A stretch of 64,000 nt of DNA from a virus (taxonomy: Duplodnaviria > Heunggongvirae > Uroviricota > Caudoviricetes), in the IMG/VR virus record IMGVR_UViG_3300029736_000004. One strand, given 5' to 3'. Positions 48,479-53,093 of the stretch are shown here, piece after piece (within the stretch, counting starts at the first letter, position 1; every line of letters begins with the position of its first letter). The notes beneath the pieces are model-generated. The model was not told the origin of the DNA, did no database searches, and was given only the letters and a program-made list of their open reading frames with translations. The translations under genes were made by a program, and so were the position numbers.

Positions 48479-49687
48479 ATGAGTCAGCAAGTAGAATCAT
48501 CAAGCCTGGAGATCATCTCAACCGCAATTGAAACGCTGCGGACACAAATCGCGCTTATACAGAAACGAAATCCGGGCGATGACCTGTCAAAGCGACTGCA
48601 TGAGAGCGTCATTGCCACTACAGATAACCTGGTGGCGGAAATCAACCAGCTCCTTGATGATGGGGCAGTTGATTACAATAAGCTGGTGGATCAGTTTGAG
48701 GAGTATCAGCAAGCCGTTAATGATGGCTTGATCCGTTTTTCTCAAGTCACTGGTGTATCAGCGACAGTTGAAAGCCTGGGGGATGCAGTTAATCAATTTG
48801 CCGCGAATATGCGTAATGAGATCGGCAATCTGGAGGCGCGTCTTGAGCAGGCAAATACACTGCGCAAATCTGCTGAAGTCGATTTGAGTCGTTACAAAAA
48901 AGACTATCCGCCAAGCCTGACAAAACGACTGGATGTTGCGGAGAAAGATAACCGCACGCTGAAAAGAGAGCGTCGCGAACTAAAAGAGCGTTTAACCAAG
49001 CTAAATCAGCAATGCGTTGAGTATCAAGGCGAACTCGTCACACTGCGTAAAAAGTTAGCAGCGGCGCAGAGCATTATTGAAACATTGAAACGAGAGTGCT
49101 CAGAGCTTGGTCATGATCTGAATCGCGCCTGTGGCATGGGGCAAAGGCCAGAGACATTCCCGCTAATGTATGACGGAAGAGAAGCTATTGCCTATATCCA
49201 TGAGTTTCCGCATGGTCTGGTCGCGGAGACTGGGCAACGTGGCGAAGCGTTGCTGACGGCAAATTACCATCAGCAAATCAGAACCAGCCGCCTGCTGACG
49301 ATGGATGTGATCCCGTCAGTATGGGGAACGCCGCTTTACTACCGAATTCCTGGCTTCGAAACTGACTGGAATACCGACATAGACGAATGTCTGGCAGATA
49401 AAATTATGGCGTACCTTGAAACGGATTTTCCACGCTTGCATCGCCGGATTATGGACTCTAAGGATGCACCGATCGACGAATTGAAAATGCGTCCAGAGAC
49501 GTTGGAGGCAATCAAGCAGACTGAGTTTGATACAGTGTTCAGTGTGGCCTGCATTCCAAGCAGCTTTCATGAAAGCATTCCGTTCATGCAGGGCGATCGC
49601 CGTCAGGAAATAATTGATGCTTGCCGGGTATGGGCGAACGAGTGGGATAAGAAGAACGGTGGAGTTGAAAATCTTTACGGGAAATAA
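48479..49687 (+). CDS. hypothetical coiled-coil protein
   Basis: 402 aa; N-terminal half predicted coiled coil, C-terminal globular part. Confidence 0.45.
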   Translation: MSQQVESSSLEIISTAIETLRTQIALIQKRNPGDDLSKRLHESVIATTDNLVAEINQLLDDGAVDYNKLVDQFEEYQQAVNDGLIRFSQVTGVSATVESLGDAVNQFAANMRNEIGNLEARLEQANTLRKSAEVDLSRYKKDYPPSLTKRLDVAEKDNRTLKRERRELKERLTKLNQQCVEYQGELVTLRKKLAAAQSIIETLKRECSELGHDLNRACGMGQRPETFPLMYDGREAIAYIHEFPHGLVAETGQRGEALLTANYHQQIRTSRLLTMDVIPSVWGTPLYYRIPGFETDWNTDIDECLADKIMAYLETDFPRLHRRIMDSKDAPIDELKMRPETLEAIKQTEFDTVFSVACIPSSFHESIPFMQGDRRQEIIDACRVWANEWDKKNGGVENLYGK

Positions 49688-49688
49688 T

Positions 49689-49720
49689 ATGTTAGAAAAT
49701 TAAAATTGTTTTTCTAACAT
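49689..49720. promoter_or_regulatory. operator-like perfect palindrome
   Basis: ATGTTAGAAAATTAAAATTGTTTTTCTAACAT; another site TGTTAGAAAGTAAA at 49840-49853. Confidence 0.5.
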
Positions 49721-50548
49721 ATTGATTATGGGGTTAACTTAACATAGAATTTTTCGTGCTGGTGGGGAGCTTCCCATGTCGCTTGCGGGTTTGATAGTCA
49801 CTTCATTGTCTTTCCCCACCAGCATCAAACAAATTTAAGTGTTAGAAAGTAAATTTTAAGGTAAGGGAAAGCTCCGGCACCGTGCAAATACATGCCCGGC
49901 AGGTTTAGTGCGTAAAGTGGCTTCAGCGAGAGCATTTTACGGAGTAAACGACAGTGACTTGAGCCACGGAAGGTCTTTTTATGGTGTTCATTGATGATGA
50001 TCTGGCAGTGAGTATGTTAAGTGGGCCAGGCTGCATCGGGTCATCATCAGTGCACATCCTCAACGTTAAGGAGGCGCAGAGTTGGGTTTTCCTCTTATTT
50101 TGCTGACTCTGAGTCTCCTTAACGTTGCGGTAATGCACCTATGCGGATGTGGCCTTGCATTGTGTCTTGAAAGAATGGGGTAAGGCCGGGGATATCCCCA
50201 GGGGGAGGCACCCCCGCTGCAACGAACAGCCACAGACGGCAGTCGAGTGATGGAAACGTGCAAAGACTTTAAACCTCGTTACGGCTGGCGTGGCAAACGC
50301 GACAACCGAGACAGAGCGGTGACGGGCGGAGAGAGAGCCGCTTCAAGATAAAAGCCGACTATGGATTCCTTTCTGCGGGCCTTTGAAAGTGAATCTTGCT
50401 CAGGCAGTCGGCTTTTATGTTGATACGTAGCGATAGCCGCGACAGGCGCGGCGGCAAGTATGGCGGGGTAGTGACTCCTTCCCCCTTATGACGCCGATTT
50501 GCCAGGCTGGCCATACGCCTAAGTGGCAATACCGCGAGTGGGATATTT

Positions 50549-50574
50549 GCCCACCTTCGGGTGGGTGTTTTTTC
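50549..50574 (+). terminator. rho-independent terminator inside non-coding region
   Basis: GCCCACC-TTCG-GGTGGGT followed by GTTTTTTC. Confidence 0.6.
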
Positions 50575-51034
50575 AGGGTTTTCGTCATGGTTAGCGACTT
50601 TGCGGCGGTTTAGAACCCGACCATTAAAGTAAATGCAAACGATGATCTGATGATGGTAGCGGCCTAAGAAGCCTGACGCCACGGGGTATGAGTCGTCCCC
50701 CGTCAAAAAATCGACCGCAGAGTGTCCCCGTCTGTGTATTAGGGAACGGGGAGGCATAACAGGCAAGGGCGCTGGTGTGATTAACCAGATGAATGAGAAG
50801 GGTCAGGTCTTTCTGGTCAGCGCCCTTACCTGTTACGTCCTTACCGCGTAACAGCCATTGGTTAATGGCTTTCTGGAATAATGTCTTGTAACGGGTATAT
50901 CCCGTCATGCTGAAGGCGCTAATCACGCTGGAAGCCAGGGTTATGCATCCCCTGTTACCGAATTGCAGCCAGGGCGCGGTGCGCCGAAAAGCATACGGAG
51001 GTGGAAGCCCTCGCCGGAGACGTACCCGGCAAGT

Positions 51035-51111
51035 GATGGTGTAGCTCAGTAGGATAGAGCAGCAGCCTTCTAAGCTGTCGGTCGGTGGTTCGAATCCACC
51101 CACCATCGCCA
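51035..51111 (+). tRNA. tRNA-Arg (anticodon TCT)
   Basis: Cloverleaf: acceptor GATGGTG/CACCATC, D-arm TAGCTCAGTAGGATAGAGC, anticodon loop CTTCTAA, T-arm GGTGGTTCGAATCCACC, CCA end. Confidence 0.85.
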
Positions 51112-51116
51112 ATTTA

Positions 51117-51203
51117 GGGGAGTTAGTCCGTAGGGGTAGCGGGGTAGACTGTAAATCTACTGTCATTGCGACTCGGATGGTTCGACTCCATCACTCCCCA
51201 CCA
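51117..51203 (+). tRNA. tRNA-Tyr (anticodon GTA)
   Basis: Acceptor GGGGAGT/ACTCCCC, anticodon stem-loop GTAGA-CTGTAAA-TCTAC, long variable arm, T-loop TTCGACT, CCA. Confidence 0.8.
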
Positions 51204-51207
51204 AATT

Positions 51208-51283
51208 GCCGGTTTAGCTCAGTTGGTAGAGCAGTCGCTTTGTAAGCGAATGGTCAGCGGTTCGATCCCGTTAACCGGCACCA
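51208..51283 (+). tRNA. tRNA-Thr (anticodon TGT)
   Basis: Acceptor GCCGGTT/AACCGGC, D-arm GCTCAGTTGGTAGAGC, anticodon loop TTTGTAA, T-loop TTCGATC, CCA. Confidence 0.8.
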
Positions 51284-51296
51284 ACACAACAGGTAA

Positions 51297-51361
51297 GGGT
51301 ATTTTGCGACATCGGAGATCGCCGAGCTTGGCAGAGGGTTCGAATCCCTACGAAGTACCCT
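51297..51361 (+). other. tRNA-like element lacking a canonical anticodon arm (possible degenerate tRNA)
   Basis: Acceptor-like GGGTATT/AGTACCC, D-arm-like GCGA...TCGC, T-arm GAGGGTTCGAATCCCTA, but only 11 nt between D and T arms; extended outer stem CACAACAGGTAAGGG/CCCTTGCCGTTGTG. Confidence 0.25.
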
Positions 51362-51471
51362 TGCCGTTGTGATGAATGCACAGGCTGATGTGCCGCAACT
51401 ACAGTAGTGCGCGCTTTGCGGGGCTTGCTACAACCCTGTGTCGGAGTTCAGCACCGACCATCACAATCACT

Positions 51472-51558
51472 GGAGAGTAGGGAGCATGGTGCTCAAGCGG
51501 TCTTGAAAACCGTCCCATTGCGCAAGCGATGATGGTTCGATTCCATTACTCTCCGCCA
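51472..51558 (+). tRNA. tRNA-Ser (anticodon TGA)
   Basis: Acceptor GGAGAGT/ACTCTCC, anticodon stem-loop GCGGT-CTTGAAA-ACCGT, long variable arm, T-arm GATGGTTCGATTCCATT, CCA. Confidence 0.8.
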
Positions 51559-51849
51559 GCGCAACGTTAAGAGTATTTGGCTAATTAAGCGAATGCCGGA
51601 AGCAGAACCGGATCACCAAATGCGTACAGGCGTCATCGCCGCCCAGTCAGCCAAATGCTCTTACCATTGCGGTGAATGCGGCTAAGCGCACGCGGAACAG
51701 TTAAAACAGTAAAGGTGGTCTTTTTACTGGCGTAACGAGCATCCATAAGTGATCCGGCGTTAATTGTTAACTGGTTAACGTCACCGGGAGGCACCCGGCA
51801 CCGCAACCTAACAGCAATGGCGTTTTGTCTTAAAAGGTGGCTGCAAGTG

Positions 51850-51978
51850 ATGGATTTTTGGGCGTTTGCCGATAAAAACCCGGAGTGGACATTATTGTTT
51901 CTGCTGGTGGTTGCATACGGGGTAGAGCAAGCGGCAAAAGCCTTACGCGGTTCTGGCAAAAAGCGTAAGCGTAATTAA
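51850..51978 (+). CDS. small hydrophobic ORF (42 aa) between tRNA genes
   Basis: MDFWAFADKNPEWTLLFLLVVAYGVEQAAKALRGSGKKRKRN; not in the ORF track (under 60 aa); AAAGGTGG upstream. Confidence 0.25.
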   Translation: MDFWAFADKNPEWTLLFLLVVAYGVEQAAKALRGSGKKRKRN

Positions 51979-51987
51979 CAGTAATCT

Positions 51988-52063
51988 GGCCCTTTAGCTC
52001 AGTGGTTAGAGCGGGCGACTCATAATCGCACGGTCACCGGTTCAAGTCCGGTAGGGGCCACCA
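51988..52063 (+). tRNA. tRNA-Ile2-like (anticodon CAT; Met not excluded)
   Basis: GGCCCTTTAGCTCAGTGGTTAGAGCGGGCGACTCATAATCGC...GGTTCAAGTCCGGTAGGGGCCACCA closely resembles E. coli ileX-type tRNA (recalled). Confidence 0.8.
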
Positions 52064-52517
52064 CATTTGGTTGTAACACGGCGTATGGCACATGCGTCGT
52101 TAGCGGTCTGGTGTAGCTGTTAGGTGCCTTACTAACACTGCATGGGCACACCAGGTAGCCGGAATGTGCAAGTCACCGTTGGAGGGATAGCGGACTCAGG
52201 GACTCACCATCCTGGCGATTCGGTGTGACAGCCGGAATAGCACGGCGTACAACAGGAAAAGGTGTTTAATTAATACGAGCGCCTTCTCCGTTGTGGTAAT
52301 TGCGGCTATGCGCTCGTGACGAAGCCATTTTCATTCACTACGTTCTGATAAGTGTCGTCGCCGGGCGTGGCTAACCTGGCAGGTGGAGGCACCACCGCCA
52401 CAACTCCTTTCAATTCATCATATAGCCGCTCAGGCTGTAACCCTTAATTAATACGAAGTTACGACGTCACTACCGGTTCAGCCGGGGGATAGTCGCGCGT
52501 GTAAAAAAGGAGACGTT

Positions 52518-53093
52518 ATGTTAACGGCGAACGATAACGCGTATTCAGAAGATGATCTCGTTTTGAGTGACTTTATAGGGCGACGAGAATGCTGGACGCA
52601 AAAGCGCGAGGAGCTTTATGCAGCGTTAGTTCGTAAAGGCGTCAACATCGAAACCGCACAGAACGGTGATATGACAGTGGTAAGTGTTGGACTGCACGGC
52701 GTAAGCGTGTCAGCAATCAATCATGAGCCGTACATTGCGTTATCCGAGTCAATGGTAAGGTTAGTTAAGTTCCTGAAGTACACAGAAGCGAATAACGTGC
52801 TCATCGCCAAAAAGAACATCCCGTTCTCATCGGCCTTTTACTGGATGATGAAGGGGCTTGATGCCCGGCGAACATCATGGCCTAAAGGGAGCTATATATC
52901 GATGCTCCGTGGCAGTGTTGGCAGCAAAGAAAAGCTCGTCGAATTCCTGCCGGAAGAGGCATTCGATATTGTTGAAGGTTGTGATGTGATGGTTATGCCT
53001 CGCCTGGTAATGATGAATGGGGATTTACAGGCACAGACAGACTGGTTTGCAACTGGTGTTGATATTATCGCTACTGACTGGGAGGTTTTTTGA
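52518..53093 (+). CDS. hypothetical protein with C-terminal W-domain (FYWMMKGLDARRTSW ... TDWEVF)
   Basis: 191 aa; GGAGAC SD; same signature as 38776, 47861 and 60733 proteins. Confidence 0.45.
   Translation: MLTANDNAYSEDDLVLSDFIGRRECWTQKREELYAALVRKGVNIETAQNGDMTVVSVGLHGVSVSAINHEPYIALSESMVRLVKFLKYTEANNVLIAKKNIPFSSAFYWMMKGLDARRTSWPKGSYISMLRGSVGSKEKLVEFLPEEAFDIVEGCDVMVMPRLVMMNGDLQAQTDWFATGVDIIATDWEVF

Follow-up and report, generated by a model that had tools for sequence, protein, structure and literature searches.

The DNA analyzed here, referred to below as the window, is the 64,000-nucleotide (nt) IMG/VR record IMGVR_UViG_3300029736_000004, a P1/D6-like phage-plasmid that carries C4 antisense RNA and C4 targets. 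Within a cluster of tRNA genes, at 51297–51361, it harbors a tRNA-like element that has acceptor, D, and T arms but no room for an anticodon arm. With high confidence, this element is a functional structured RNA module and neither a tRNA gene nor the wreck of one. It is judged somewhat more probable than the reverse that the module is processed from a longer transcript and acts as a mimic of a tRNA or of the tRNA-like domain (TLD) of transfer-messenger RNA (tmRNA), while any specific binding partner is proposed with low confidence. The element is described in neither Rfam nor the literature searched, and it belongs to a large family of phage RNA hairpins that share a common stem, or "frame", around different interiors. 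The parts of the unit that holds the element are as follows.

51285–51371, + strand: hairpin "frame 1", the element with its full outer stem (fold, covariation, and covariance model R1)
51307–51350, + strand: tRNA-like apical domain (sequence reading; near-invariant core in ~110 contigs)
51378–51393, + strand: companion 3′ hairpin GCACA-GGCTGA-TGTGC, found after most frames, which covaries with GCGCA..TGCGC in relatives
51440–51458, + strand: conserved hairpin GTCGGAGTTCAGCACCGAC, which closes the unit before tRNA-Ser and also occurs in the late-operon leaders of HK629, CUS-3, and HK620

The outer stem of frame 1 pairs the arms 51285–51306 and 51351–51371 over ~21 bp and has a bulged A at 51291. 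On top of it, a D-like arm at 51307–51321 (CGA / CATCGGAGA / TCG) combines a 3-bp stem with a loop containing GG, a mini-hairpin of 2–3 bp at 51322–51331 occupies the anticodon-arm position, and a canonical T arm, AGGG-TTCGAAT-CCCT, spans 51335–51349. Only 12–13 nt separate the D and T arms. The minimum free energy of the 101-nt element stretch is −41.6 kcal/mol, compared with −25.2 ± 3.3 kcal/mol for shuffled sequences (z = −5.03), and none of 200 shuffles folds as well. An earlier inspection of the letters of this DNA, here called the sequence-only reading, had reported a tRNA-like element devoid of an anticodon arm and enclosed in a longer stem; this element is real, and the outer stem is both present and covarying, as described below.

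Relative to a canonical tRNA, the element retains the T-arm TTCRANY loop with its closing G53–C61 pair and the G18 G19 of the D loop. It has no 7-bp acceptor stem with a free 3′ CCA; instead, the helix runs for ~21 bp, and the 3′ strand of the outer stem (...GTACCCTTGCC) is fully paired. A normal tRNA at this site would have refuted the sequence-only reading; neither ARAGORN nor any of 4227 Rfam families makes a call at 51297–51361, the Rfam tRNA model giving no match to the element at E ≤ 10 even with only 111 nt searched.

The element is conserved well beyond the immediate relatives of the window. It is 97% identical to its counterpart in P1 and 95% identical to that in D6, both located directly after trnT. 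In the Uetakevirus BUCT554, an unrelated phage of 40 kb, the identity is 84% and the element has no neighboring tRNA. A pattern scan of IMG/VR retrieves 109 contigs with 34 distinct versions, and the hosts of the element comprise P1/D6-like phages, Uetakevirus BUCT554, and lambdoid late-operon leaders, in which it lies between Q and the holin gene. In pairwise comparisons, identity amounts to 63% for the variable loop, 79% for the stem, and 97% for the core, whose invariance is partly forced because the search patterns prescribed 24 of its 39 positions. When searches are anchored in the stem and the cargo is left free, this core is the only one among tRNA-like cargoes, and a relaxed core pattern run against IMG/VR adds one real variant, a single point mutation, together with one chance match. 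Across 185,579 species-representative genomes, 19 matches are obtained, as against ~16 expected by chance on a rough estimate; a single one of these, on an 83-kb Escherichia contig, looks real, judged by its source alone. To judge by the databases searched, the element is restricted to enterobacterial phages and plasmids.

The stem changes in the manner of a paired RNA. In a covariation test on 23 distinct element sequences, for which controls were generated by sliding the 3′ partners by 1–3 columns, the proposed structure pairs 95.9% of cells versus 32–56% in the slid controls. Both sides change in 10 of the 21 outer-stem pairs, and the covariation score is reached by none of 500 shuffles. 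The innermost stem, for example, reads GGGTATTTTG/CGAAGTACCC in the window and GAGCATTGCG/CGCAGTGCTC, GGGCATTGGG/CCCAGTGCTC, or GAGCATTGAG/CTCAGTGCTC elsewhere, and in one locus (L089) the stem sequence is wholly replaced on an unchanged core. G.U pairs number 52 versus 6 A.C pairs, and the covariance model R1, built from relatives on this structure, gives 109.5 bits for the + strand of the element versus 22.3 bits for the − strand; therefore, the folded strand is the one co-directional with the tRNAs. A U.G wobble at the position corresponding to 3:70, with U on the 5′ side, is kept in 20 of the 23 variants.

These data bear directly on the degenerate gene that the sequence-only reading had offered as one explanation, namely, a tRNA pseudogene in decay whose anticodon arm is gone. 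Such an origin would account for the location in a tRNA cluster, the perfect T arm and the D loop with GG, and the sub-threshold similarity to tRNA-Sec (13.3 bits) and to the MALAT1-associated RNA mascRNA (13.9 bits). However, it is contradicted because the core is near-invariant while the stem covaries: the core is held constant in ~110 contigs of different and diverged phage families, the helix extends to ~21 bp with covariation, and no intact tRNA stands at the position of the element in the relatives examined. A pseudogene is accordingly deemed very unlikely.

Hardly credible, in turn, is the notion that the element is the 3′ part of a minus-strand protein gene and that its RNA fold is incidental. 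It derives from the P1 record, in which the homologous segment is covered by plp, annotated as a putative lipoprotein of 125 aa. Yet plp overlaps trnT, a ~220-nt gap in the window falls within the P1 plp coding region (coordinates estimated), and a 36-aa minus-strand open reading frame (ORF) is all that remains in the window. The minus-strand ORF annotated over the element in BUCT554 is just as short but is not the same one, and the substitutions follow + strand base pairing.

The sequence-only reading saw the outer stem but missed both its membership in a large phage hairpin family and the homology of the region to the P1 ban leader. The lambdoid phage HK629 and the Shuimuvirus IME207 carry the same stem and small 3′ hairpin around a different interior. 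The consensus of the frame stem is CACAAC-A-GG-T-AAGRGYATTG ... CAGTGCTCTT-N-CC-GTTGTG, with the bulged A and one variable mismatch position, and that of the 3′ hairpin, GTGAATGC(R)CAGGCTGATG(Y)GC, itself covaries. A scan of IMG/VR with the stem alone finds at least 120 contigs, and the matches listed hold 68 distinct interiors of 31–58 nt, which fall into at least 25 unrelated types. By BLAST, the frame unit is present in 125 GenBank phages (lambdoid, P22-like, Uetakevirus, and P1/D6-like), and the family also extends to Shuimuvirus. The tRNA-like domain is thus one cargo among the interchangeable apical cargoes of a shared frame. In lambdoid and P22-like phages, the late-operon leader houses the frame unit, with Q and its terminator on one side and the holin gene on the other. 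The window contains four frames, two of which (51285–51371 and 51557–51680) start 0–1 nt past the CCA ends of tRNA-Thr and tRNA-Ser, respectively. The three frames other than frame 1 are listed here.

50752–50846, + strand: hairpin "frame 0" (CATAACAGGCAAGGGCGCTGG ... CAGCGCCCTTACCTGTTACG) with a non-tRNA cargo (inverted repeat I3; R1 19.9 bits, E = 0.006)
51557–51680, + strand: hairpin "frame 2" (CGCAACGTTAAGAGTATTTGG ... CCAAATGCTCTTACCATTGCG) and its 3′ hairpin (inverted repeat I1; R1 24.6 bits, E = 2e-4)
52245–52304, + strand: short hairpin "frame 3" (R1 26.1 bits, E = 8e-5)

A further possible frame is located at 50058–50128. In P1 (L001), the minus-strand genes plp and upl at 1760–2329 overlap trnT and three + strand frames, which lie inside the two annotated ORFs; plp and upl may be annotation artefacts over structured RNA. 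No Rfam family covers the frame hairpins, nothing is annotated in RefSeq at the homologous prophage sites of the frame unit, and literature searches, which also covered P1 transcriptomes and phage tmRNA-like elements but from which the P1 genome paper was absent, returned no earlier description of the frame sequence or of the tag peptides discussed below.

Frames also mark the places at which related genomes differ. The window corresponds to P1 minus the segment between the 3′ arms of two frames (window 51362–51393 vs L001 1866–2125), a relative (L003) has a different cargo in the same frame after trnT, and P1 and Ro157c2YLVW differ by a cargo swapped within the same frame. The arm-to-arm deletion and the cargo swap indicate that the frame arms act as recombination points for cassette exchange. 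Taken to its limit, this would make the frames DNA-level elements, that is, inverted repeats that serve as recombination "boundary sequences" for the shuffling of cassettes, with the cargo a captured tRNA fragment. Besides the deletion and the swap, such a role would fit the boundary-sequence features annotated beside the frame in CUS-3, the HNH endonuclease gene just upstream in HK629, and the HNH-like ORFs, recognized by sequence reading, in L012 and L099. The asymmetry of G.U and A.C pairs and the conserved U.G wobble, however, point to a folded + strand transcript, the compensatory changes keep pairing and not sequence, and the cargo is under purifying selection. A purely DNA-level role is considered rather improbable; an RNA function does not conflict with recombination at the arms, which is perhaps its by-product.

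The frames resemble the boundary sequences that Clark et al. (2001, HK620, cited in PMC3029335) described for lambdoid phages, which are likewise short and conserved, mark mosaic junctions of the Q-to-S region, and show signs of recombination at the arms. The two differ in that the annotated bsq features of CUS-3 flank the frame and do not cover it, and no source consulted describes a hairpin or RNA character. In several lambdoid phages, free-standing endonuclease genes, each followed by a terminator, lie directly upstream of frames, at L114 (HK629) 1877–2389, L012 9772–10899, and L099 10639–11151; the HK629 gene is annotated as an HNH endonuclease, while the ORFs of L012 and L099 are HNH-like by sequence reading only. 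Their position beside the frames suggests homing into a conserved RNA region. An analogy with integron attC sites was considered and set aside: the arm ends CACAAC/GTTGTG resemble RYYYAAC/GTTRRRY, but the fit to the consensus is inexact and no integrase is associated.

The sequence-only reading had also named a processing signal and a tRNA mimic as possible roles, and both of these remain live. In the first case, the hairpin would act in cis only and set off the units of the polycistronic tRNA and leader transcript, as an entry site for RNase III or RNase P or as a protective 5′/3′ stem, with no trans role for the apical domain. The frames abut tRNA 3′ ends, and several are found in one leader. 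The outer stem has the size of an RNase III substrate (21 pairs, one bulge, and 94% of cells paired across variants, or approximately two turns), hairpin-type RNase P substrates are known in P1/P7 (C4), P4 (CI), and phi80 (M3) (PMC5499578), and the apical part is freely exchangeable across the frame family. What a processing signal leaves unexplained is the near-invariant 44-nt tRNA-like cargo on a diverging stem, even on the different stem of L089. As a full account of the element it is considered unlikely. Identity of the element with phi80 M3 RNA is rejected because M3-type substrates are described as having no T loop (PMC5499578).

According to the preferred reading, that of a processed tRNA/TLD mimic, the module would be transcribed together with the phage tRNAs in a long non-coding leader, homologous to the P1 ban leader and to lambdoid late-operon leaders. 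RNase III and/or RNase P would cut it out of the precursor via the ~21-bp stem, thereby also releasing the adjoining tRNA at its 3′ end. The released RNA would present the tRNA "elbow", formed by the D-loop GG and the T loop, with no decoding capacity, and would mimic a tRNA for, or act as a decoy of, some host factor able to recognize the elbow shape. SmpB is the leading candidate partner, as for the "TLD-only" tmRNAs, the alternatives being RNase P and a tRNA-modifying or tRNA-cleaving enzyme. Since the elbow elements are kept while decoding and, as encoded, charging are precluded, the element would act as a tRNA/TLD mimic; since it departs from the TLD-only tmRNA and Y RNA families in their defining features, it is classed by its presumed mode of action and assigned to neither.

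The closest known parallel is the "TLD-only" tmRNA of mycobacteriophage DS6A (PMC4131195; PMC11915505). Both RNAs are phage-encoded and ~65 nt long, place an acceptor-type helix on a canonical T arm, and have a D-loop element with GG, and in both the anticodon arm is replaced by nothing. TLD-only RNAs inhibit tmRNA, perhaps by titration of SmpB (PMC4131195). The TLD of tmRNA, however, has a G3.U70 pair, whereas the element keeps a U.G in the opposite orientation, and an encoded or addable 3′ ACCA, whereas the element lacks a free 3′ CCA because its helix continues into the closed ~21-bp stem. As in tmRNA, a tag module belongs to the same transcript unit as the element, yet the two are not tied in cis, and the element is not called by ARAGORN or by the Rfam tmRNA models.

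A second parallel is provided by the Y RNAs (YrlA and Deinococcus Yrn1), in which, as in the element, a long terminal stem formed from the 5′ and 3′ ends bears a tRNA-like D/T module (PMC4201824). Yrn1 further shares the order of D arm, short arm, and T arm with the terminal stem in the acceptor position. RNase P, DusA, TruB, and the CCA-adding enzyme act on the tRNA-like domains of Y RNAs (PMC4201824). In contrast to Y RNAs, the 5′ arm of the element, CACAACAGGTAAGRGYATTG, is devoid of the Ro-binding motif GNCGAAN0-1G. No Ro60/Rsr (TROVE) gene is listed in the annotated regions of P1, D6, HK629, CUS-3, HK620, and BUCT554, and no TROVE search was made on the window. YrlA itself is permuted (T arm, acceptor loop, D arm), unlike the element, and identity with YrlA is ruled out by this topology together with the lack of an RF02553 match to the element.

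The best Rfam alignment of the element, not significant at 13.9 bits, is to mascRNA, which has in common with it a tRNA-like fold with a reduced anticodon arm and is used in MALAT1 as a cleavage signal for RNase P and RNase Z. Unlike the element, mascRNA comes from eukaryotes and has an open acceptor end, with no long helix enclosing it. The species 1 and 2 RNAs of phage T4 are stable, small, and structured, lie within the phage tRNA cluster, are co-transcribed with the tRNAs, and are released by host RNases. Their likeness to the element is one of description only, and they are not built on the shared hairpin frame.

The tag module mentioned above lies upstream of the element and consists of a short reading frame and a pseudoknot.

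50635–50667, + strand: tmRNA-like tag frame, ANDDLMMVAA + stop (tmRNA_permuted match, variants, and substitution pattern)
50681–50715, + strand: H-type pseudoknot after the tag, with S1 ACGGGG/CCCCGT and S2 GTCG/CGAC (both stems covary)

The sequence of the frame, GCAAACGATGATCTGATGATGGTAGCGGCCTAA, translates to ANDDLMMVAA and a stop, compared with the host tag ANDENYALAA of E. coli tmRNA. The Rfam tmRNA_permuted model matches it weakly (24.1 bits vs a cut-off of 47). No locus compared has an in-frame start codon, and in both sequence types read by eye, that of the window among them, an in-frame TAG lies 8 codons upstream. The 17 tag peptide variants (e.g., ANDEQFLAVA, ANEEMYLAVA, ANDDVVLMAA, and ANDNTFLAVA) are all exactly 10 codons long, with a hydrophobic, Ala-rich end, and the stop, which may be TAA, TAG, or TGA, is constant in position. 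Internal stops are absent from the tag frame, the other two frames being stopped in 25–29 of 31 sequences. Differences between close variants number 79, 43, and 19 at codon positions 3, 1, and 2, respectively, and 66 of 128 codon changes are synonymous. The stop codon is situated in the loop of a small hairpin, which is followed by the pseudoknot. Stem S1 of the latter occurs as CGGGG/CCCCG, CAGGG/CCCTG, CAAGG/CCTTG, or TGAGG/CCTCA, and stem S2 as GTCG/CGAC, CCGA/TCGG, or CCAG/CTGG.

More than 120 IMG/VR contigs carry the module, as do the prophages of 124 of 5426 complete E. coli genomes, in none of which it is annotated. In HK620 (L349, ~700–790), it follows pR′ and precedes tQ, as the late terminator is annotated. 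Its similarity to E. coli ssrA is confined to the first 13 nt, GCAAACGA(A/C)GAAA. ARAGORN, run on the window and on 64 further loci, 52 other tag loci among them, makes no tmRNA call, and no G3.U70 acceptor stem with a CCA end was found near the tag. A segment considered as the ssrA 5′ end of a canonical TLD for the tag, GGGTTTTCG...GGTTAGCGAC, resembles it probably by coincidence because, in lambdoid copies, the segment is the 3′ arm of the preceding frame. The tag and the tRNA-like cargo are adjacent in L005, L006, L012, L060, L068, and L092, and in P1-type genomes they are ~590–680 nt apart.

Several points weigh against a processed mimic. The acceptor-type helix has no open end and runs on into the outer stem, and with a U.G in place of G3.U70 and no 3′ CCA the element is unchargeable as it stands. 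In addition to the partly forced invariance of the core, its D and T stems never vary and therefore contribute no covariation support. Expression and processing of the element are inferred in every phage. In several lambdoid phages, the element directly follows an intrinsic terminator, so that its transcription there needs read-through or antitermination. A CRISPR interference screen found trnT, plp, upl, tciABC, and trnI all to be non-essential for P1, the region being dispensable for P1 plaque formation (PMC10695390). Finally, the tRNA-like cargo is absent from all 103 additional tag loci retrieved, and of 19 non-P1 tRNA-like copies only 7 lie within ~300 nt of a tag. From these co-occurrence counts, the tRNA-like cargo and the tag module are not obligate partners; given so loose an association, the two are separate cassettes of one island and not one gene.

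A broader idea, put forward tentatively and held to be unlikely in its full form, is that in P1/D6-like, lambdoid, P22-like, and other temperate enterobacterial phages, a modular RNA island targets host ribosome rescue. The tag unit and the closed TLD-like decoy, together or separately, would hijack or inhibit SmpB/tmRNA trans-translation when lytic-phase promoters fire, and the frame would be a processing scaffold for swapping effectors. The presence of a tmRNA-like tag near the element makes this trans-translation hypothesis testable. Host tmRNA is reportedly required by some lambdoid hybrid phages, and the tag module could bear on this dependence. Should the element prove to be a processed tRNA/TLD mimic, model phages such as P1 and HK620 would carry unannotated RNA effectors under empty leaders or under doubtful minus-strand ORFs such as plp and upl. 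With its more than 25 interchangeable cargoes, the shared frame resembles a cassette system for small RNAs and offers a way to study non-coding exchange between phages.

The sequence-only reading also drew attention to a short ORF between the Ser and Ile2 tRNA genes, which it described as a membrane peptide with a basic tail and possibly a small toxin or regulatory peptide.

51850–51978, + strand: tciC-like ORF of 42 aa, hydrophobic with a basic tail (TciC comparison and phrog_23152)

Its product, MDFWAFADKNPEWTLLFLLVVAYGVEQAAKALRGSGKKRKRN, aligns with P1 TciC, MGFWDFADKHPIVLVVIAGIVVGGIAGVIEALRKQ, and matches phrog_23152 at E = 0.0018 over residues 1–33. By tblastn, the ORF is in frame in 120 plasmids, with identity falling to 44–67% in Enterobacter, Leclercia, and Acinetobacter; its in-frame conservation in relatives, the lack of which would have refuted the sequence-only reading, supports the description of a small hydrophobic protein with a basic tail. 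The ratio dN/dS is 0.09–0.5 among close relatives, and against Enterobacter dS is saturated and dN is 0.25. Wherever checked (the window, L244, L245, and P1), the ORF lies directly upstream of the CAT-anticodon tRNA, and in the window, L244, and L245 the distance from its stop to the tRNA start is ~10–13 nt. From its pattern of conservation, the ORF is a real gene, a TciC homologue under purifying selection, whose family is already annotated in P1. The two proteins share an N-terminal M-x-FW-x-F-x-DK-x-P, a hydrophobic core, a basic end, and the site immediately upstream of trnI. They differ in length, P1 TciC having 35 aa versus 42 aa here, and tciA and tciB, present in P1, are absent from the window. 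As for function, nothing here points to a toxin or a regulator.

The tRNA genes of the cluster, like tciC, were already known. ARAGORN finds five tRNAs only in the window, the same five and at the same coordinates as reported by the sequence-only reading.

51035–51111, + strand: tRNA-Arg (TCT) (ARAGORN and Rfam)
51117–51203, + strand: tRNA-Tyr (GTA) (ARAGORN and Rfam)
51208–51283, + strand: tRNA-Thr (TGT) (ARAGORN and Rfam)
51472–51558, + strand: tRNA-Ser (TGA), slightly atypical (ARAGORN; Rfam as tRNA-Sec below cut-off)
51988–52063, + strand: tRNA with CAT anticodon (Met/Ile2), homologue of P1 trnI (tRNA-Ile2) (ARAGORN and Rfam)

Four of the five reach the Rfam gathering score. The exception, tRNA-Ser, is matched in Rfam by tRNA-Sec only, at 44.6 bits vs a cut-off of 47, and for this gene the D6 record notes that tRNAscan-SE was unable to assign an amino acid. 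The D6 record (L002, NC_050154.1) annotates its tRNA genes at 1636–2341 on the strand opposite to that given by ARAGORN and omits the CAT-anticodon tRNA at L002 3327–3402.

The tRNAs, frames, tag module, and tciC-like gene all fall within, or form part of, a segment at 49687–52518 that is best seen as a ~2.8-kb non-coding RNA island, because it has few long ORFs, one promoter-like site, and one + strand terminator. Between these coordinates there is no ORF longer than 135 aa except one of 180 aa on the minus strand (50624–51166), which is almost certainly spurious. The latter is antisense to tRNA-Arg, tRNA-Tyr, and the tag module and could mislead gene callers. The signals that delimit transcription and a region resembling a known small RNA (sRNA) are listed below.

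49722–49750, + strand: promoter-like site TTGATT-17-TAGAAT, the candidate start of the island (by consensus match only)
50548–50575, + strand: intrinsic terminator at the end of the homologue of the P1 "dicF-like region" (P1 annotation and sequence alignment)
51668–51805, + strand: STnc100/PasD-like sRNA region, partial match (Rfam RF02076)

The island is the homologue of the P1 ban operon leader, in which the order is Pban, "dicF-like region", trnA, trnT, plp/upl (on the opposite strand), tciA, tciB, tciC, trnI, and ban. The terminator at 50548–50575 is its sole + strand terminator. A palindrome in the 49686–49750 region, ATATGTTAGAAAA..TTTTCTAACATAT, abuts the promoter-like site, which is the only such site in the island. 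A P1-type C1 operator was looked for in the window and not found, and the palindrome is a candidate repressor operator in its place. The sequence TGTTAGAAA, from the same palindrome region, occurs again near 49840. Downstream of the tRNAs, the ORFs are laid out like the orf6, orf5, lpa, and pac genes of D6, a correspondence of position and size only. The region at 51668–51805 matches RF02076 (STnc100) at 40.8 bits, below the cut-off of 47, and covers model positions 31–147 of 206; the same match is present in one relative. It starts at the 3′ end of frame 2 and finishes in the hairpin CACCGGGAGGCACCCGGCACC, and a second copy of its end motif lies upstream at ~50190–50225.

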